Source: Anoxybacteroides voinovskiense (GTDB taxonomy: Bacteria; Bacillota; Bacilli; Bacillales; Anoxybacillaceae). Taken from it: DNA of 40,000 bases. A program made the translations under genes and the position numbers. Numbering within the stretch: the first letter of the stretch is position 1; each line of letters opens with the position of its first letter. The stretch is taken from contig NZ_JACIDE010000010.1 of assembly GCF_014196205.1 (NCBI RefSeq), positions 59,470 to 99,469 of the forward strand, written 5' to 3'. The notes beneath the pieces were generated by a model. The model saw nothing but the letters and a program-made list of their open reading frames with translations. It was not told the origin of the DNA and made no database searches. Positions 15,316 to 40,000 of the stretch are shown here, one piece after another.

Positions 15316-15750
15316 TTGAGTGTAGAAGAATATATAAATGGCAGGTTAACAGAACAAATTAACTGGTATGACAAAAAGAGCATGCAGGCAAAAAAGCGTT
15401 ACATGATTTTTCAGACTATCGAGATTATTTCCGCTTCCTTAATTCCAATAGTGAATGGCTTGGTAACTGAATCCGCACAGATCAGAATTATTATTTCAAT
15501 ACTCGGTTCGATAGTCGTAATCTGCGGTTCGTTAGCAAGATTAGGAAAGTTTCATGAAAATTGGCTTCATTATCGTCAAACGTGCGAACTTCTCAAACAT
15601 GAAAAATACTTATTTCTTACATCTACCACACCATATGAAGAACAATCATTTCAACTCTTAGTAGAAAGAGTGGAAAGTATTATTTCGTCCGAAAATGTAA
15701 ATTGGTCTCAGCTCGCGACTGAAAAAAGAGAAGAAATGATCAGTCGGTGA
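15316..15750 (+). CDS. SLATT-like 2TM protein (DUF4231-like)
   Basis: N-terminal EEYINGRLTEQINWYDKKS motif. Two hydrophobic helices (MIFQTIEIISASLIPIVNGL and IRIIISILGSIVVICGSLARL) are followed by FHENWLHYRQTCELLKHEKYLF. Only a TTG start is available, and the SD-like GAGAGGGGGAAG is 21 nt upstream, so the start is uncertain. Confidence 0.7.
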   Translation: MSVEEYINGRLTEQINWYDKKSMQAKKRYMIFQTIEIISASLIPIVNGLVTESAQIRIIISILGSIVVICGSLARLGKFHENWLHYRQTCELLKHEKYLFLTSTTPYEEQSFQLLVERVESIISSENVNWSQLATEKREEMISR

Positions 15751-15934: not shown

Positions 15935-15997
15935 AGGTAAAACCTCCATTTTTCCGCTTGTAATATTATTATATCATACATAAAGGAGATGTTCTTT

Positions 15998-16426
15998 ATG
16001 AAGACTTATAACATTTTTATCAGTCATGCTTGGAAGTACAGCGAACATTATCATAAAGTTGTGCAGTGGCTTAATGAAGCTCAAGATGAAGGGCAATTTA
16101 AATGGAAGAATTATTCTGTTCCTGAACATGACCCTCTAATTGATCCAAACACTACGTATGGAAAAAAGAAATTAAAAGAAGAGCTTGAGGGTCAAATAAA
16201 ACCAACCTCCATTGTCATCATACTATCTGGTATGTATGCTGCATATAGTGAATGGATTGATTTTGAAATCGACACAGCTGTCTCATGTGAAAAATATATT
16301 ATCGGCGTCAAACCTTGGGGACAGGAAAGAATACCGAAAAAAGTGTCAGACAACGCAGACGTTATGGTTGGATGGAATAAAAACCCTATTGTTAATGCTG
16401 TTCTGGAAAGCAATAAAGGAGAATAA
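15998..16426 (+). CDS. TIR-like domain protein (DUF1863 / MTH538 / ThsB-like)
   Basis: YNIFISHAW N-terminal strand, then IVIILSGMYAAYSEWIDFEIDTA with a conserved W..E(Glu90, codon 16265..16267)..A motif and YIIGVKPWG. ATG 15998 lies 8 nt after AAAGGAGA. Confidence 0.75.
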   Translation: MKTYNIFISHAWKYSEHYHKVVQWLNEAQDEGQFKWKNYSVPEHDPLIDPNTTYGKKKLKEELEGQIKPTSIVIILSGMYAAYSEWIDFEIDTAVSCEKYIIGVKPWGQERIPKKVSDNADVMVGWNKNPIVNAVLESNKGE

Positions 16427-17727: not shown

Positions 17728-17859
17728 TTACGCCACAAAATCTTCACCTGTAATCAATTTATACTCTTCTAATGTGATAACTCCCCATGAAGCCGCTTCA
17801 TGCACATCATCTTTTGTTAGATACCCCATTTGGTAAAAGATTTTATAAAAATCGAACAT
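17728..17859 (-). CDS. XkdX-family small phage protein, 43 aa (below the track cutoff)
   Basis: MFDFYKIFYQMGYLTKDDVHEAASWGVITLEEYKLITGEDFVA shows the typical XkdX pattern (ITxEEYxxITG). Confidence 0.7.
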   Translation of the reverse strand: MFDFYKIFYQMGYLTKDDVHEAASWGVITLEEYKLITGEDFVA

Positions 17860-17860
17860 A

Positions 17861-18058
17861 TCACATACCACCTTTCCATTTCGTGATTTCGATGTTTAAT
17901 GCAGAAACTGTTTTTGTGAGTTGCGCAATCACAGCGTCTTTTTTCTTGTTTTCGAGCGCTAATTGCGCTAGTGTTAACGCTATACTTTTCTCCGTCATTT
18001 CAGATTGTTGTCGTTCTTGTTCAACAATCTCCAAATCTTTAATTCTAATACTCTTCAC
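17861..18058 (-). CDS. coiled-coil small phage protein (XkdW-position)
   Basis: GTG 18058 lies 9 nt after GAGGAGG. 65 aa, heptad-rich. No family recognised. Confidence 0.5.
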   Translation of the reverse strand: MKSIRIKDLEIVEQERQQSEMTEKSIALTLAQLALENKKKDAVIAQLTKTVSALNIEITKWKGGM

Positions 18059-18072
18059 TGTTTATCGCCTCC

Positions 18073-19347
18073 TCATTCGAATGAGAAACCAAACCCATCA
18101 ACAATGATTTGGTCTGTTGCTGTTCCTTTCAGTATCTCGAATTGTATGTTAATTCCCCAATTCGCAGCTGTTTTTGTTGTATTTGTAAACGAATAAGATT
18201 GACGGTTAATGAACGCTGTTGTGATGTCCTCCCATGTCGGCGAGGTGTCAAATCCGTTATTACACACTTTTACAGATAGCGTTGCCCCTGTTGGAACAGT
18301 AACTACACCACTAACAACAATCTTCTTTGACGCAACAGATGTTTGAATCGGATTTTTTAATGTAAATTTAATACGGTCATCTGTCTTGGTGAATGTATAT
18401 GTCCTTGTTGCCGTACCGCCTTTTCCGTCGTCAACAGTAATTGTGATTGTATGCGAGCCAAGCGATAAGCTCGACCATACACCACTCAAATCGAATGTAT
18501 ATGTTTGATTTCGCACCGCGTTGCTAATCGTTCGAATCGTTGTCGCATCAACTTTTTCTGTGACCGTGAGCGTGTCGCTTGTATCTGTGTCGTTGACAGT
18601 ATAGTCAATCGTAAAAGGCGCAGCTTTATTCCCGAGATTCGCGTCTGCGCCAGAAATCACAGGGGCAGAATTCAGAACTTCAAGGACGGGGCGCCAACCA
18701 ATGTACGTGTAGCGAGAGCCAGACGAATAGTAGTCCCAGAAACGAGCCGAGATGTACCCGCGAATCGCACGGGAGGCGCTGTTTCCTGTATAGGTCTCCT
18801 GCACCCATGAATAAACGCCCATCCAATTCCATTTTTGATTATGTGACCCGTTCTTATCTGTACTGTTTAGCGTTGAATCTAAATCTGATGCGGTTGGGGT
18901 AGGTAATCCGCTCAATCCCGCTTCGTTTACAATCCATCTATCCCACTCGTTTGACGTGGGTGAACCGCCACTATAAGCATCTGTACCGCTGCGATAATTT
19001 GACCCGCCTGTCAACAATCGCAGTTTATATTGTTGTCCGTCAATCGTTACCGTTTTTCCTGTAACCAATTGCTGTGCGTTTAAGTCATCCCAACTGATAT
19101 TGACGAGCATGACACGGTCGCAGACGAGATATTTTTTACCACCGTCATTCACTTCAATCCATTGCATTTCATAGTTTATTTCCGTGTTTCGAATCTCTAA
19201 TGTAGCGCCCGCGCTATAATTCTGTATATTCCCTACACCAGCACCTGTATAAGGTTCTGCGTCGTTTCGCCACGGGTTTGTCGGACGAGGAATCCTTGTA
19301 CCGCCCATATACAGCGTGCCAAGTTTAATCACATCTCCATTCGCCAA
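18073..19347 (-). CDS. DGR target protein: N-terminal lectin-type variable domain (VR = residues 190-221) followed by two beta-sandwich/Ig-like domains; probable receptor-binding tail protein
   Basis: Contains the VR. The VR ends in GWRPVLE, a typical DGR C-type-lectin-fold terminus. TTG 19347 lies 7 nt after GGAAGGAGAG inside the RT 3' end. Located in the tail-fibre region. Confidence 0.85.
   Translation of the reverse strand: MANGDVIKLGTLYMGGTRIPRPTNPWRNDAEPYTGAGVGNIQNYSAGATLEIRNTEINYEMQWIEVNDGGKKYLVCDRVMLVNISWDDLNAQQLVTGKTVTIDGQQYKLRLLTGGSNYRSGTDAYSGGSPTSNEWDRWIVNEAGLSGLPTPTASDLDSTLNSTDKNGSHNQKWNWMGVYSWVQETYTGNSASRAIRGYISARFWDYYSSGSRYTYIGWRPVLEVLNSAPVISGADANLGNKAAPFTIDYTVNDTDTSDTLTVTEKVDATTIRTISNAVRNQTYTFDLSGVWSSLSLGSHTITITVDDGKGGTATRTYTFTKTDDRIKFTLKNPIQTSVASKKIVVSGVVTVPTGATLSVKVCNNGFDTSPTWEDITTAFINRQSYSFTNTTKTAANWGINIQFEILKGTATDQIIVDGFGFSFE
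18685..18779 (-). repeat. DGR variable repeat (VR), 95 bp
   Basis: Aligns without gaps to 20528..20622 with 10 mismatches. Seven of these are at template adenines on the coding strand. Confidence 0.88.
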
Positions 19348-20392
19348 ACTTCATCTCTCCTTCCACTTTTATATACGGATATGGAGCGAATATTTTCTTT
19401 GCTAGGTTGTAAGAATTACTATGGCGTGCATGACCAAGCCAGCTATCAACAGCTTGTTTCACTTCTTTCTCCGTCAGCAATCCTTCCTTTAACTTGCGAT
19501 CCATCGCTTTTATCCGTCGTTTCATTGCCCGTTTTGATTGATCGCGTACTTTTCGATGAGTTGTCCATATTTTAAAACCGTACGCATTTACACCTTGTTT
19601 TAGAGGAAATATCTGTGTTTTCTTCTCGTTTTCTTTTAAGTTCAATTTTGTTCGTAAAAACCAAATCATTCGCTCTTTTAACAATTTCGCATCTTCTCTC
19701 GTTGGTACTATTGCTATACAATCATCCATATAGCGCACGTAATATTTGATACCTAAATAACGCTTCACGTATTGGTCGAGTTCATTAAGGTAGATATTCG
19801 CAAAGTCTTGACTGGTAACATTCCCAAGAGGGATGCCAACTTTTCCTTCTGGACTACTGTCAATAATCGTATCAAGAAGCCATAATGTGCGTTCGCAAGC
19901 TATTTTCTTGCGTAAGATTCGTTTCAATATTTCGCGGTCAATTGTATAGAAAAACTTTGAAATATCCACTTTCACAATCCAACCGCCACCAAAATTGCGT
20001 TCAGCCATCCTCATATATCGTTGGACAGCTTCAACCGCTCGGTGTGTTCCTCGCCCCTCAAGACAAGCATAAGAATCTTTAGTGAATACGCCTTTGTATA
20101 CATCTTTAATCACGTTATGCACAGCAAACTGAACAATCTTATCTCGAATATGTGGGGCGCTGACTAAACGTTCTTTTGGTTCATACACTTTGAATCGAAT
20201 ATAATCACCGACTCGATACACCCCTGTTTTTAATTCTTTCCATAGATTAAACAAATTCACATCTTCGACCATCGAAAACAAAATAGCATCTCTCTTGAAT
20301 TTTCGAGAACCTTTTGTGGTCTGTTTATAAGCAAAAAGAAGATTATTAAAATCAACAATCTTCTCGTACAAACGATCGTATCTTTTCACCAT
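19325..20392 (-). CDS. DGR reverse transcriptase
   Basis: YMDD catalytic box (VRYMDDCIAI) and the DGR-typical IPLGNVTSQDFANIYL motif. Adjacent to TR and Avd. ATG 20392 follows AAGGAGG. Confidence 0.92.
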   Translation of the reverse strand: MVKRYDRLYEKIVDFNNLLFAYKQTTKGSRKFKRDAILFSMVEDVNLFNLWKELKTGVYRVGDYIRFKVYEPKERLVSAPHIRDKIVQFAVHNVIKDVYKGVFTKDSYACLEGRGTHRAVEAVQRYMRMAERNFGGGWIVKVDISKFFYTIDREILKRILRKKIACERTLWLLDTIIDSSPEGKVGIPLGNVTSQDFANIYLNELDQYVKRYLGIKYYVRYMDDCIAIVPTREDAKLLKERMIWFLRTKLNLKENEKKTQIFPLKQGVNAYGFKIWTTHRKVRDQSKRAMKRRIKAMDRKLKEGLLTEKEVKQAVDSWLGHARHSNSYNLAKKIFAPYPYIKVEGEMKFGEWRCD

Positions 20393-20656
20393 ATCGGCTG
20401 CCTCCTTTTACGCTAGGCGATATGGCTATTCATGTGTTTACGCTCTTCGAGCGAAGGATTACAGCTCCCTTGAAGTTTCAAAGCCTGTTAGAAAAGCCGT
20501 AGCTGTTCTAATCGAAAATACTAACAAGACGGGGCGCCAACCAATGTTCGTGTTGCGATTGCCAGACGAATGGTAGTCCGAGTAACGAGCCGAGTAGTAC
20601 CCGCGAATCGCACGGTAGGCGCCCAAACAGCCGCAACCCTAGTGATTACTATTATG
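20393..20656 (-). ncRNA. DGR template RNA region (TR plus ~135-nt spacer between TR and RT)
   Basis: Non-coding interval between the Avd stop and the RT start that contains the TR. The layout matches avd-TR-spacer-RT cassettes. The RNA ends were not determined. Confidence 0.5.
20528..20622 (-). repeat. DGR template repeat (TR), 95 bp
   Basis: Cognate of the VR. In the VR reading frame it would encode GAYRAIRGYYSARYSDYHSSGNRNTNIGWRPV, with AAY/TAC codons at the diversified positions. Confidence 0.88.
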
Positions 20657-20998
20657 TTAAGTTCTCATCCATCCGCCAAGCAATTTGCCGAGTTCAAAAA
20701 TTTTCGTTTGGAAATATAAATGTTTCTTCTGCGAAAGATATTTCTGCTTCTTAGCGACACTAAACAAAACAAGAAGAAGTTTTATATATGCATCCACTTC
20801 TTCTTGGTACAATCGTCTTTTCGATTTTACGTTGTTCGCAAGCATTATATATTTTAAAAGGGAGTAGAATGCTTGTTTAATTTCTTGACACAAAGCAAAC
20901 TTCTCCGCTTTTGGGAAGTTTTTTAAAACGGGATAGACTTCGTGCAGTAATACTTCTGCCTTTTTATATAAAATTAAATCTGTTGCTGATTGGCTCAA
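20657..20998 (-). CDS. avd: DGR accessory variability determinant (Avd, four-helix-bundle family)
   Basis: 113-aa helical basic protein (YPVLKNFPKAEKFALCQEIKQAFYSLL...) immediately upstream of the TR. The TTG start abuts the tail-fibre stop. Confidence 0.8.
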   Translation of the reverse strand: MSQSATDLILYKKAEVLLHEVYPVLKNFPKAEKFALCQEIKQAFYSLLKYIMLANNVKSKRRLYQEEVDAYIKLLLVLFSVAKKQKYLSQKKHLYFQTKIFELGKLLGGWMRT

Positions 20999-21493
20999 TT
21001 AAAGCACCAACCTTTTATTTGCGCTGTCATAAATTCCGTTCATCAAGTTAATATCATTTAAGTTTGTAAATGTTTCAATGAAAATATTGGCGGTGACACC
21101 GTTTAATGTTGCTCCTTTTAACGTTTCAAGCTCAACCGCCATGTCTATGATATTGAGATTGATGTTTGTGAATTTTGTCGCAGTTTCCGCCGAATGCGCA
21201 ACAACTGCATCATTCACTTGTTTCACCGCATTTGCTGTTGCGGCTTGTGTCGTCGATGTGCTTGTCAGTGTGTCGTTGAGTTGGACAATACCAGCTTGTG
21301 TTGTGCTTGCAGACGGCAGCGACTGTTGCGGCAACTGTTCCGACAGAATTTTCCCATCTGGTCCTAGGATAGCGACTTTCCCATCAATTTTGTCCCAGTT
21401 GTCATTCAGCATTGTCTGTATATTAAACGTGTCATTTGCGTCTGCAATAGGGTCTTTCTTGTACAATCCTAATCGAGGTGTGTTACTCGCCAA
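20999..21493 (-). CDS. tail fibre protein (short, XkdV-position)
   Basis: TTQAGIVQLNDTLTSTSTTQAATANAVKQV fibre-type repeat. TTG start lies 7 nt after GGAGGTG. Confidence 0.65.
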   Translation of the reverse strand: MASNTPRLGLYKKDPIADANDTFNIQTMLNDNWDKIDGKVAILGPDGKILSEQLPQQSLPSASTTQAGIVQLNDTLTSTSTTQAATANAVKQVNDAVVAHSAETATKFTNINLNIIDMAVELETLKGATLNGVTANIFIETFTNLNDINLMNGIYDSANKRLVL

Positions 21494-33555: not shown

Positions 33556-33748
33556 ATTCTATGATTTCGATTGACTTAATTTCTGGTTCACCAACACCGA
33601 TATATTTCCCCTCAACAAACATGTCGAGGCTGTCATAATCATCATCAGTATCTTCTTGGTCGGTGTAATCTTGGACAATCCCCTCTAATATTTCACCATC
33701 TTTGAGAGTAACTCGTATTTTCTTCCCTACATATTCCCATAATCTCAA
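33554..33748 (-). CDS. small acidic protein, 64 aa; candidate immunity protein for the upstream MuF toxin domain
   Basis: ATGA-coupled to the MuF gene. MRLWEYVGKKIRVTLKDGEILEGIVQDYTDQEDTDDDYDSLDMFVEG. Confidence 0.5.
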   Translation of the reverse strand: MRLWEYVGKKIRVTLKDGEILEGIVQDYTDQEDTDDDYDSLDMFVEGKYIGVGEPEIKSIEIIE

Positions 33749-35202
33749 TGCTTCATCCCCCTTTCTTTTATTAAAGTTGGAACAATATGAGTTCCTGTCT
33801 TACTATAATGTATTTTAAAGTCTTTTGTTTTTACTTCTTTCCCTGTCGTTTGATCTACATATACCCCGATATATTCGTCGCCTTTTATGAGTTCTTTATT
33901 TATCCAATCTCCTTTACTGCTGAACTGAAGTGTACCAGTACCAGCATATTTTTTCACTAACTCATTAGCTTCTTCATAAGAAATTGTTAAATAGCTTGGT
34001 TTCTGTCTGCCCTTCGCTTTATTTCTTTGCACATAATCAAGATAACGCTTATGAGATGGATTATGCTTGTCGTAATGATTTCGGCTATGCTCCAACTTAT
34101 AAACACCATTACGAATATCAGCCCGTATCTGCTCTTCTAGCGCTTGTTCTTTCTCTCTTTCTTTACGTTCAGCCTCGAGTTTTGGTTTCAATACATTTTT
34201 ATTATACCACTCTTCATACGAAACGGAATCCACCAACCCATTCATCGACTGACGTTTTTCGCCGTTTGCGTACTCCGACTCATCGAAATATGGAATCGTC
34301 GTCGTTCGGCAACGGACATGAAATGGCGGCGCATTCGTTCCCGGCTTGTAATCTTTCACGTTATAAATCTTGCCGTCTTGGCTTCTACAAATATCCGATG
34401 TTCGCATATCGAGCGTGGCCAAAATCTCGTATTTCTCCATCCCTGCATCGCGATAGCTGTTTTGCGCAGCCAAATTGTGAAAGAAACTCGCTTCCGTCCT
34501 GACCAACGCTTCAGCGCGCGAGTATGCCACATCCGTCACTTTCACAATTTCTTTCGCTGTTTTGTCGATGGAACGACCAATGATAAAGCTTTGTTCGAGC
34601 GACTTTCGAATGTTCTGCATCGTTTCTTGTTCATGTCCCCAAATTCGCTCGGAAAATTCTTTCCCACTCCAGTTATACGACATCACTTCACGCATCGTGC
34701 TGTCGTCAAGAATTTGCACATTGGCAGGTATACCAGCCATCGCAAAGTCGTACATAAAGTGATAGTACGAGTTTTGGTACACATCGACTAGCCCTGTGTA
34801 AACGTAGTCTTGTAAGCCATTTTTACCGCCGTATAAATGCAGCATCGTCATTTCTATTTGCGCCAAAAGCAGCTCTAATCGCGAAATTCGAACGCGATAG
34901 CTAATCGCATTCAATAGATTTTCGTATTGCGGATTCCCTTCAAGCGCCATCGCGCGAAACCGAGCAAGGTCAACTTCCTTGAACGCTTCTATTTCTTGTG
35001 ATGTTAGCAGCTTCCTTGCCTCATGTAACGAAATTTGATTATCTCTCGCATATCGAGCATAAAAGGCTTCAATTTGTCTTAAAATGTCTTGCTGCGCTTC
35101 TTTCAGTCGCTGCTGCATCTGCGCTAAATACTTCTCAACGATCAGCTGTGCTTCCTGTTCTCTTTGCGTCGCGCGTTGTTCCCAATATTGACGACTATTC
35201 AT
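33745..35202 (-). CDS. SPP1 gp7/Mu F-like head morphogenesis protein with C-terminal polymorphic-toxin-type-50-like domain
   Basis: MuF core (...NAPPFHVRCRTTTIPYF). After a charged linker comes KHNPSHKRY...LVKKYAGTGTL...WINKE...YIGVY...KIHYSKTGTHIVP, which resembles the Ntox50 consensus as I remember it. Confidence 0.8.
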   Translation of the reverse strand: MNSRQYWEQRATQREQEAQLIVEKYLAQMQQRLKEAQQDILRQIEAFYARYARDNQISLHEARKLLTSQEIEAFKEVDLARFRAMALEGNPQYENLLNAISYRVRISRLELLLAQIEMTMLHLYGGKNGLQDYVYTGLVDVYQNSYYHFMYDFAMAGIPANVQILDDSTMREVMSYNWSGKEFSERIWGHEQETMQNIRKSLEQSFIIGRSIDKTAKEIVKVTDVAYSRAEALVRTEASFFHNLAAQNSYRDAGMEKYEILATLDMRTSDICRSQDGKIYNVKDYKPGTNAPPFHVRCRTTTIPYFDESEYANGEKRQSMNGLVDSVSYEEWYNKNVLKPKLEAERKEREKEQALEEQIRADIRNGVYKLEHSRNHYDKHNPSHKRYLDYVQRNKAKGRQKPSYLTISYEEANELVKKYAGTGTLQFSSKGDWINKELIKGDEYIGVYVDQTTGKEVKTKDFKIHYSKTGTHIVPTLIKERGMKH

Positions 35203-38871: not shown

Positions 38872-39063
38872 ATGAAGAGTTACTCTTCAAAAGAATTAAT
38901 TAAAATGATACAGCAAGACGGATGGTACATAGTCAGAACGACTGGCAGTCATCATCAGTTTAAACATCCCAGTAAACCCGGATTAGTGACCATCCCTCAT
39001 CCTAAGAAAGACTTACCAACTAAAACAGTAAAAAGCATACTTAAACAGGCGGGACTACTTTAA
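38872..39063 (+). CDS. hicA: HicA-family mRNA interferase toxin
   Basis: 63 aa. SSKELIKMIQQDGWYIVRTTGSHHQFKHPSKPGLVTIPHPKKDL is the classical HicA pattern. Confidence 0.9.
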   Translation: MKSYSSKELIKMIQQDGWYIVRTTGSHHQFKHPSKPGLVTIPHPKKDLPTKTVKSILKQAGLL

Positions 39064-39089: not shown

Positions 39090-39500
39090 ATGCATAAAAA
39101 AGACCGTTATATTTATCCAGCCATTTTCGATTATGGTAGCGACGGAATATCTGTTGAGTTTCCTGATCTTCCTGGCTGCTTTACTTGCGGAGACACGGAA
39201 GAAGAAGCATTTCAAATGGCAAAAGAAGCGATGGCATTACATCTGTATGGATTAGAGCAGGAAAATGAAGAAATCCCTCAGCCTTCAAAAGTATCGGAAA
39301 TTCAAACAAAAAAACACCAAGTCGTTGTGTTCGTCGAGGTATGGATGCCACCTTTTCGTCACGAAATGGAGAACAAAGCCGTCAAAAAGACATTGACCAT
39401 TCCTAAATGGCTTGACGACCTTGCGAAACAATACGATGTGAACTATTCGCAGATTCTCCAAGAAGCATTAAAAAAACATTTGGGAGCTACCGACCGATAA
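39090..39500 (+). CDS. hicB: HicB-family antitoxin with C-terminal RHH-like DNA-binding tail
   Basis: YIYPAIFDYGSDGISVEFPDLPGCFTCGDTEEEAFQMAKEAMALHL (HicB fold). C-terminal TLTIPKWLDDLAKQYDVNYSQILQEALKKHL. Confidence 0.9.
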   Translation: MHKKDRYIYPAIFDYGSDGISVEFPDLPGCFTCGDTEEEAFQMAKEAMALHLYGLEQENEEIPQPSKVSEIQTKKHQVVVFVEVWMPPFRHEMENKAVKKTLTIPKWLDDLAKQYDVNYSQILQEALKKHLGATDR

Positions 39501-39505
39501 TGTAA

Positions 39506-39540
39506 AAAGCCTCTTCAGCTACACATGCAGAAGAGGCTTT
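39506..39540. terminator. bidirectional hairpin terminator after hicB, overlapping the last codons of the convergent sigma-like gene
   Basis: AAAGCCTCTTC (39506..39516) and GAAGAGGCTTT (39530..39540) form a perfect 11-bp stem, followed by CTTTT. Confidence 0.7.
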
Positions 39541-40000
39541 CTTTTATGCGTTTTTTGATTTTTCTTTCAGCGCGTTCAATCATCGTCTGAACACTACTCG
39601 ATGAGATACAAAGATAATTCGCAATCTCGCTATATGTTAAGCAATATCCTCGTGACATAAGATACACTTCCCGTTCTCGTTCGGTGAGCACGGATAAAGC
39701 GTCCTCAATGCGTTCCCGATCCCAGCTCGTAATAACACTTTCCCTTTCGTGATCGTCCCACTCATAGACAGGTTCGCTGGAACGGAAATATTTTTGCATC
39801 AGTAACGGGTCAAAAAGTTTCTCGCGTTGATAGGCAGCGCGTCGCTCGATGCCACGTCGATTTTCCGGTCTTCTTCCTGTTGCCAACCACTCTATCGTAA
39901 ATTCAAGATCCGAAATCATTCCTCTGATTATCTTTTTATCTTCATCTGATGCCGTTTCTAGGAGCTTCCTTGCTAATCGCAACGATTCGCGGTACTGTTT
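39515..40000 (-). CDS. sigma-70 region-4-like phage late transcription regulator; the 5' end is probably outside the window
   Basis: LTEREREVYLMSRGYCLTYSEIANYLCISSSSVQTMIERAERKIKKRI is a region-4/LuxR-type HTH. The frame stays open upstream of the track TTG (39982) to position 40000. Confidence 0.7.
   Translation of the reverse strand, partial: KQYRESLRLARKLLETASDEDKKIIRGMISDLEFTIEWLATGRRPENRRGIERRAAYQREKLFDPLLMQKYFRSSEPVYEWDDHERESVITSWDRERIEDALSVLTEREREVYLMSRGYCLTYSEIANYLCISSSSVQTMIERAERKIKKRIKESLFCMCS

Follow-up and report, generated by a model that had tools for sequence, protein, structure and literature searches.

Evidence for a structurally complete diversity-generating retroelement in the tail module of a PBSX-like prophage of Anoxybacillus voinovskiensis

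Introduction

Tentaclins are targets of diversity-generating retroelements (DGRs) that consist of an N-terminal lectin-like domain carrying the variable repeat (VR), one or more immunoglobulin (Ig)-like domains and a C-terminal anchoring beta-sandwich, and they include the 'Hoc-like' protein of phage FP_Mushu (Baykov et al. 2023, PMC10743442). Experiments with Faecalibacterium phage FP_Mushu revealed a hypervariable VR once the phage had been induced (Cornuault et al. 2018, PMC5883640). Targets of the 'Ig' type were re-read as tail fibres in which Ig domains stand beside a non-Ig VR domain (Roux et al. 2021, PMC8144416). The gene order avd, template repeat (TR), reverse transcriptase (RT) and target is covered by architecture B1 of Wu et al. 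2018 (PMC5758913), where internal VRs are recorded in the 'Ig' classes. Among RNA motifs associated with RTs, Weinberg et al. 2017 (PMC5737381) described RT-9, assigned RT-10 to the DGR of Bordetella phage BPP-1 and made the guess that further motifs of this group serve other DGRs. In this study a cassette with avd, TR, RT and a VR-bearing target gene was analysed in a 40-kb stretch of Anoxybacillus voinovskiensis DNA (contig NZ_JACIDE010000010.1; hereafter the window). We consider it very probable that this cassette is a bona fide and structurally complete DGR of the Firmicute-phage lineage that includes FP_Mushu, situated among the distal tail genes of a prophage that is PBSX-like and has a contractile tail. 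The host of the prophage is a hot-spring bacterium.

Results and Discussion

Composition and gene order of the cassette

The open reading frames (ORFs) and repeats of the cassette were re-derived from the sequence. All coordinates refer to the window and the cassette lies on the minus strand.

20657..20998, minus strand: avd, DGR accessory four-helix-bundle protein, 113 aa (ORF and family profiles)
20528..20622, minus strand: TR, 95 nt, non-coding, 16 adenines (repeat comparison)
20527..20393, minus strand: spacer of 135 nt between TR and RT
19325..20392, minus strand: DGR reverse transcriptase, 355 aa, with YMDD and IPLGNVTSQ (ORF, profiles and homology)
18073..19347, minus strand: target gene of 'tentaclin' type, 424 aa, TTG start (ORF, model and homology)
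18685..18779, minus strand: VR, 95 nt, encoding target aa 190-221 (repeat comparison and model)

A first-pass annotation of this DNA had placed the same parts at the same coordinates and had given the TR/VR pair as 95 bp, gap-free and 89 percent identical; both statements were reproduced. The 23-nt overlap of RT and target genes was likewise recovered, with the Shine-Dalgarno sequence inside the RT gene (AGGAG about 9 nt upstream of the TTG start), and the placement between a tail fibre and XkdX agrees with a Phage_fiber_2 protein upstream and an XkdX protein downstream. The gene order had been called atypical. It does differ from that of BPP-1, but it is not unusual, since it is kept in FP_Mushu and in all close RT relatives examined: in every RT relative of at least 55% identity with a detected TR/VR pair the order is avd-TR-RT-target, and some 1.85 kb separate the TR from the downstream VR. 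Among the more distant RT relatives this order and the textbook order are evenly split. The order is thus unlike that of BPP-1, yet ordinary for this lineage.

Analysis of the Avd protein revealed a match to the NCBIfam equivalog NF033474 DivGenRetAVD (93.2 bits against a cut-off of 80), to Pfam bAvd (1.8e-25) and to phrog_3206 'Avd protein of DGR'. The RT matched RVT_1 (9e-21) and phrog_1423 (7e-127), was 46% identical to the DGR RT of FP_Mushu (E 3e-102) and stayed well below the cut-offs of the group II, retron and Drt models. Its translation contains YMDD and IPLGNVTSQ, the latter corresponding to the DGR-type motif xGxxxSQ. These features mark the enzyme as an RT of the DGR type and set it apart from RTs of group II introns, retrons and defence systems. 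At all 46 columns with a conservation of 95% or more in 81 relatives it has the conserved residue, and Avd likewise keeps all conserved residues. Exact protein look-up found the RT annotated publicly as 'retron-type' and the target as 'hypothetical'.

Adenine-specific differences between template and variable repeats

TR and VR align over 95 nt without gaps and are identical at 85 of the 95 positions, while the flanking sequences are unrelated; the TR is non-coding and the similarity ends abruptly on both sides. Seven of the ten mismatches fall at TR adenines on the coding strand, where 16 of 95 nucleotides are adenine (hypergeometric P=9.4e-5). All 16 adenines occupy codon positions 1 or 2 and A-to-N changes never yield a stop codon, which gives a theoretical repertoire of up to 13 variable codons and about 3.5e9 protein variants. 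Comparison was made with 13 related cassettes recovered with their DNA; in most of these every mismatch was at an adenine (13/13, 10/10, 17/17, 10/10 and 13/13, among others). Pooled over 40 related loci, 93% of TR/VR mismatches were adenine-specific and only four loci had three or more non-adenine mismatches. Among 23 close homologues of the target, variation in the VR clusters at the codons that hold TR adenines.

The three non-adenine mismatches in the window are TR positions 27, 43 and 51. At these positions the TRs of the relatives carry A (13/13), G (11/13, as part of a TGG tryptophan codon) and A (12/13), and the window VR carries A, G and T. Because the relatives' TRs have A, G and A there, A27T, G43C and A51C are substitutions in the window TR. 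After polarisation with the 13 relatives' TRs, all eight VR-side changes lie at ancestral adenines (P=3.6e-7). The VR was written from an earlier TR with changes at adenines only.

Domains of the target protein

The target comprises a lectin-like domain (aa 1-225), a Big_9 Ig-like domain (aa 226-320; profile match 9.5e-7 and beta-sandwich secondary structure in the model) and a C-terminal beta-sandwich (aa 325-423). The AlphaFold2 model of the full protein had a mean per-residue confidence (pLDDT) of 91.7, and that of the N-terminal domain reached 96.3 (predicted TM-score 0.92). The N-terminal domain was modelled alone, as the Ig-like domains swamped the full-length fold search. In the model the VR forms the last four beta-strands of the lectin-like domain. 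Foldseek comparison of this domain with the PDB gave informative matches only to proteins of the FGE/C-lectin fold (PvdO, the DGR variable protein TvpA 2y3c, FGE, CarF, PorK and EgtB), and stronger matches were found in BFVD to 'virion structural proteins' of jumbo phages and to DUF6273 proteins. Two segments of the target align with the FP_Mushu target, at 52% (E 1e-99) and 41% identity (E 2e-40), the second of them joining the C-terminal 200 aa to the C-terminus of the Mushu tentaclin. On the strength of the model and these alignments, the target is best classed as a tentaclin.

Homologues also vary in a second patch, at target aa ~117-132 (about 18952-18999, minus strand; NYRSGTDAYSGGSPTS). 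This patch is modelled as a beta-hairpin, is not represented in the TR and may share a binding surface with the VR. In Brevibacillus sp. B_LB10_24 a perfect tandem duplication lies inside the homologous target gene (L002, 1798-2134; two 168-nt copies at a start-to-start spacing of 169 nt). It contains the VR, and both VR copies are almost unmutated, being ~98% identical to the TR.

Conserved RNA structure around the template repeat

No segment of the module is as well conserved as the spacer, which shows 90-96% nucleotide identity to four close relatives versus 86-94% for the RT. It matches Rfam family RF03080 (RT-9 RNA) with 76.1 bits against a gathering score of 46.1, over model positions 1-92 of 92 (cmscan). 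Alignments of 15-18 relatives, made independently of Rfam, revealed the following RNA elements.

20424..20513, minus strand: structured spacer RNA, RF03080 (cmscan and independent covariation)
20488-20511, minus strand: 9-bp stem capped by a UACG tetraloop, ~17 nt past the TR (compensatory changes)
20441-20453, minus strand: second hairpin in the spacer (compensatory changes)
20429-20441, minus strand: invariant GTAAACACATGAA in the spacer
20629..20640, minus strand: 5' strand AGGGTTGCGGCT of a TR-bracketing 12-bp duplex, just upstream of the TR (alignment of 15 relatives)
20455-20466, minus strand: 3' strand AGCTGTAATCCT of the TR-bracketing duplex (pairs with 20629-20640)
20535..20541, minus strand: TR 3' segment GTTGGCG, predicted to pair with spacer CGCCTAGC at 20412-20419 (weaker support)

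Altogether 33 pairs were identified, of which 98% of cells are paired and 20 show compensatory changes; all 33 are intact in the window. The paired fraction was 97.6-98% as against at most 51.5% with slid partners, and none of 500 shuffles reached the covariation score. In the 12-bp duplex that brackets the TR, 99.4% of cells are paired among the 15 relatives and seven of the 12 pairs have compensatory double changes, all 12 pairs again being intact in the window. The helix between GTTGGCG and CGCCTAGC is paired in 95% of cells across 15 sequences and has one compensatory pair. By analogy with the TR:Sp duplex of BPP-1, this helix of the TR 3' end and the spacer is a more tentative candidate for the template:primer duplex. 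A further local helix proposed by RNAalifold (helix 3, AGGGA/TCCTT) was rejected, as it shows almost no covariation and clashes with the better-supported long-range duplex.

IMH-like element inside the coding sequence

The GC-rich end common to TR and VR had been described in the first-pass annotation as an IMH-like element (IMH, initiation of mutagenic homing). The shared 15-mer GGTTGGCGCCCCGTC is indeed present, at two places only in the window versus 0.04 expected by chance. Being common to TR and VR, it cannot alone set the direction of transfer, and the VR-specific part is formed by the next ~12 nt.

18673..18699, minus strand: IMH-like element, consisting of GGTTGGCGCCCCGTC (common to TR) and the VR-specific CTTGAAGTTCTG at 18673-18684 (codon conservation)

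VR and its TR counterpart part ways directly after GTC. Among 56 invariant columns of degenerate amino acids in 14 target genes, only four are also fully codon-invariant (CCC, CTT, GAA and CTG), and all four lie at the VR 3' edge. Such frozen synonymous sites are what would be expected of nucleotide-level selection on an IMH inside coding sequence.

Proposed mechanism

Homology to BPP-1 suggests that a transcript of the avd 3' end, the TR and the spacer would fold into a ribonucleoprotein with RT and Avd. In this particle the 12-bp duplex would bracket the TR, the spacer would carry the UACG-capped stem-loop and the second hairpin, and priming would probably be positioned by pairing of the spacer with the GC-rich 3' end of the TR. 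The RT would then copy the TR with misincorporation at adenines, and the cDNA would replace the VR under the guidance of the IMH at the VR 3' edge. Up to 13 codons (~3.5e9 variants) could in this way be rewritten on the surface of the N-terminal lectin-like domain, which would probably shift the receptor bound. Direct evidence was obtained for the parts, the adenine bias, the covarying RNA, the IMH constraint and TR-to-VR transfer on this lineage; the biochemical steps, receptor binding and any present activity are inferred.

Probable placement of the target in the distal tail

The genes that flank the cassette are listed below.

20999..21493, minus strand: 164-aa tail-fibre repeat protein, directly upstream of avd (Pfam Phage_fiber_2 1.3e-12 and several tail-fibre PHROGs)
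17861..18058, minus strand: conserved 65-aa ORF after the target (an ORF of 65-67 aa is found at this position in every close relative)
17728..17871, minus strand: XkdX-family small protein (Pfam Phage_XkdX 2.4e-12; kept downstream of the target in relatives)

The XkdX gene marks the end of the tail-fibre module. Profile searches gave no family match for the 65-aa ORF, which possibly has a role in fibre assembly. The prophage shows the order terminase, portal, capsid, sheath, tube, tape measure, baseplate J, Mu gp48-like, XhlA, holin and amidase, adjoins the host genes pckA, metK and asnB, and is PBSX-like with a contractile tail. The DGR module is mobile, occurring behind differing baseplate or fibre genes in loci L081-L085. 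In myovirus and siphovirus contexts alike, the target gene always lies between baseplate or Dit/Tal-type/fibre genes and XkdX plus lysis genes.

A cultured siphovirus, Clostridium phage phi8074-B1 (L088, 6986-9664), encodes an 892-aa protein that starts with the same lectin-like domain (48% identity, aa 6-223). The gene order there is tape measure, Dit-like, 481-aa protein, 892-aa protein, two small ORFs, tail protein and lysis genes, and the annotation of the region examined lists no RT gene. The Ig repeat of the window target matches a solved PDB chain deposited as 'Tail fiber protein'. Taken together, these data point to a target that belongs to the distal tail. A receptor-binding role is probable, and a part in tropism switching is presumed.

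Two observations on related loci are added. The two small ORFs after the 892-aa protein of phi8074-B1 (63 and 50 aa) echo the 65-aa ORF and XkdX. A Geobacillus sp. locus (L086, VRMI01000004.1, 5844-7641) has a homologous target, a small ORF and XkdX in a siphovirus-type tail (Dit), together with a 59-aa RT remnant and no avd; it is an orphaned VR gene whose DGR core has been lost.

Signs of activity in related loci

Two contigs from different metagenomes (L095 and L097) share an identical TR and encode an identical RT protein, which falls in the same 90%-identity cluster as the window RT. Over ~2.99 kb the two are identical; beyond this stretch 18 VR positions differ, 13 of which are TR adenines (P=3e-7). 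The five non-adenine differences lie at the VR 5' end and seven further differences occur 54-87 nt downstream, so recombination is possible, and the comparison is indirect evidence of activity and not clean proof. A blastn comparison with a phage collection found no close phage and gave only weak matches to the Mushu VR region. In several metagenome contigs with this RT (L090-L094 and L096) the sequence breaks off no more than a few hundred bases past the RT gene, before or close to the VR. These early ends probably reflect low coverage, and VR microdiversity that breaks assemblies is a further possible cause.

Template drift, last homing and alternative explanations

Which lineage-specific changes of the TR reached the VR dates the last homing. 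Four such changes in the window TR (positions 6, 11, 38 and 59) are also present in the VR, which places TR-to-VR transfer on this lineage after its split from the relatives. Three (positions 27, 43 and 51) are missing from the VR, and therefore no homing has occurred since those arose. The first-pass annotation had called the DGR complete; every part is present, but completeness is not equal to activity, given three TR-side substitutions since the last homing.

Some observations weigh against an intact and working DGR with a lectin-fold target. The seven lineage-specific changes of the window TR compare with 1-4 in its four closest relatives, and four of the seven are at codon positions 1 or 2. 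One of them, G43C, turns TGG (in 11 of 13 relatives' TRs; tryptophan in all 23 closest proteins) into TCG, so the next homing would install serine at a conserved scaffold position. Comparison of the VR across isolates, which had been suggested as a check, found an identical target protein, VR included, in two assemblies of the species, and no case of the same backbone with a different VR was found for this strain in the 90% cluster. The hairpin that follows the VR in BPP-1 has no equivalent here, as neither a conserved inverted repeat nor a stable fold was found in 75 nt downstream of the VR at 14 loci. For the N-terminal domain, the Foldseek matches to lectin folds were weak (best E 5e-3, TM 0.33-0.38) and no Pfam lectin, FGE-sulfatase or DUF1566 match was obtained at E<=1 among 41 family members; the lectin fold hence rests on structure and literature. 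Judged by the repeats, the element is complete but has stayed silent over a substantial part of the time since its split from the relatives, which suggests long quiescence or early decay.

We give a minority weight, yet a considerable one, to the explanation that the locus is a DGR relic in early decay, with genes and RNA intact, no homing, a TR drifting without selection and a VR that is now fixed. It would account for three TR-only substitutions since the last homing as against none at non-adenine VR positions, for the excess of lineage-specific TR changes over the sister lineages and for the tryptophan-to-serine change in the template. It is also in line with the rarity of three or more non-adenine mismatches (4/40 related loci), with the VR identity of the two assemblies and with the core loss seen elsewhere in the family, where L086 keeps a 59-aa RT remnant. 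The number of TR adenines points the same way, being 16 in the window versus 19-22 in the four closest TRs and 17-25 across all 13 relatives. Against a relic stand the RT and Avd without deviation at conserved columns, the 33 RNA pairs and the IMH that are all intact, the small number of substitutions, three, and the TR polymorphism that also occurs between contigs with identical RT proteins. Three adenines were lost on this lineage (A6T, A27T and A51C) and none gained. As a biased process this loss was not significant either way (P=0.11 for 3 versus 6 changes, the lineage-specific changes being also listed as seven). A template that erodes by its own chemistry, with adenine-mutagenised cDNA sometimes retrohoming into the TR as IMH/IMH* discrimination fails, is an improbable but conceivable cause; it is raised because of the three lost adenines and of A-to-N TR variants between identical-RT contigs (L090 and possibly L094). 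If true, such self-erosion would be a built-in route of DGRs to self-inactivation, and this locus a snapshot of it. The contigs in question share their RT protein with L089: L090 (2271-2365) carries the TR variants A28T and G60A, and L094 (1-47) has four A-to-N changes at the TR position, at the start of the contig, where the sequence may be a TR/VR assembly chimera.

The remaining explanations concern what the target does and whether the repeats belong to a DGR at all. It seems unlikely that the target is a Hoc-like capsid decoration or an environmental adhesin, in which variation would tune surface attachment and not host range. The family is annotated as 'Hoc-like head decoration' (phrog_10993, FP_Mushu record), the target has Ig-like domains, and the possibility is left open by Baykov et al. 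2023 (PMC10743442); however, the gene always follows baseplate or Dit/Tal-type genes and precedes XkdX and lysis genes, the Ig repeat matches a deposited tail fiber chain, and the class was re-read as tail fibres by Roux et al. 2021 (PMC8144416). Binding to mucus or immune cells is moreover implausible for a hot-spring host, a thermophile, which argues against such explanations of tentaclins and for bacterial-receptor binding. A simple partial gene duplication with random divergence, which the first-pass annotation had named among the findings that would overturn its reading, here beside an unrelated RT (retron, group II intron or defence RT), is hardly credible. Three of the ten raw mismatches are non-adenine and the public RT annotation reads 'retron-type'. 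This account is contradicted by the adenine bias (P=9.4e-5, and 8/8 after polarisation), by a non-coding TR whose similarity to the VR ends sharply on both sides, by the presence of Avd, by an RT that has the xGxxxSQ motif and scores far too low for the group II, retron and Drt models, and by the recurrence of the arrangement in relatives with 93% adenine-specific mismatches. A structurally complete DGR of the FP_Mushu lineage, each part of which has independent support, remains the explanation that we prefer.

Other genes in the window

Just beyond the endolysin, at the prophage end and on the opposite strand, a DUF4231/SLATT_1 effector gene with two transmembrane segments (15316-15750, plus strand; 9e-26) is followed by a ThsB-type TIR-like gene (15989-16426, plus strand; 5.8e-17). 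The two look like a prophage-borne defence gene pair. A 485-aa protein (33745-35202, minus strand) combines a phage Mu F-like head-morphogenesis domain (aa 196-303) with a C-terminal Ntox50 toxin domain (aa 375-475, 5e-26), which would be a virion-associated toxin domain. Reading of translations, as distinct from family search, suggested a HicA-like toxin (38872-39063, plus strand) and a HicB-like antitoxin (39090-39500, plus strand). On one side of these two genes lies the small terminase gene and on the other an ArpU/Xpf-like late regulator (39515-39982, minus strand; sigma region 4-like, likewise by reading of its translation), at which the window ends.

Comparison with known systems

The definition of DGRs is unaltered by this locus, and the FP_Mushu/tentaclin lineage with an RT-9 spacer has been described before. 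What this study adds to the lineage is the TR-bracketing duplex tied to RT-9, an IMH in coding sequence seen through frozen synonymous sites, and the dating of the last homing by the lineage-specific TR changes that reached the VR. A DGR of the tentaclin/FP_Mushu type, known mainly from gut viromes, is now found in a cultivable hot-spring thermophile, which offers a tractable host and possibly a heat-tolerant set of RT, Avd and RNA for DGR-based mutagenesis tools.

FP_Mushu (MG711460) shares the synteny of baseplate J, Mu gp48-like, bAvd, TR, RT, target and two small ORFs, and its VR is also internal; the targets are 52% identical over the lectin-like and first Ig domains and 41% over the C-terminal part. 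The Mushu target has three Ig repeats in 574 aa, whereas the window target has one in 424 aa, and the small ORF after the target shows no detectable similarity between the two. FP_Mushu is a Mu-like transposable phage of a gut anaerobe, in contrast to the PBSX-like prophage of a thermophilic member of the Bacillaceae analysed here. Tentaclins in general (PMC10743442) agree with the window target in its predicted domain layout, in length (424 aa, within the stated 313-649 aa) and in the BFVD matches to DUF6273 proteins. They were described from gut viromes and often occur as two targets, unlike the single target in a non-gut thermophile. The classes 'Ig1/Ig2' and architecture B1 of Wu et al. 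2018 (PMC5758913) resemble this locus in the avd-TR-RT core order, the internal VR and the Ig-like domains of the target. The difference is that the window VR lies in a lectin-like domain before the Ig domain and not in an Ig fold, in agreement with Roux et al. 2021.

The two hairpins of the RT-9 model (RF03080) correspond to helices 2 and 4, which were found here independently. The model leaves GAGnnnnAnUCC unpaired, whereas in our alignments it pairs upstream of the TR, ~175 nt away, with strong covariation; this covarying duplex extends RT-9 and connects it with sequence that precedes the TR. The pairing of the TR 3' end also lies outside the model.

BPP-1 (mtd-avd-TR-brt) and the window element have in common Avd and RT, adenine-specific TR-to-VR transfer, a GC-rich IMH-type end and a tail target, in the window element a probable one, with a lectin fold that is predicted here. 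Their RNAs are alike in a spacer of ~135-140 nt, a stem-loop after the TR and a TR-bracketing duplex positioned like the 'cPRT Stop' duplex, and the window element also likely pairs its TR 3' end with the spacer (preprint 10.1101/2023.10.23.563531). Unlike in BPP-1, the window target lies downstream of the RT, the VR is internal (aa 190-221 of 424) with the IMH inside coding sequence, and the VR is followed by neither a hairpin nor a cruciform. Similarity between the window target and Mtd is not detectable at the sequence level. The spacer of the window element is RT-9 and that of BPP-1 is RT-10 (PMC5737381).

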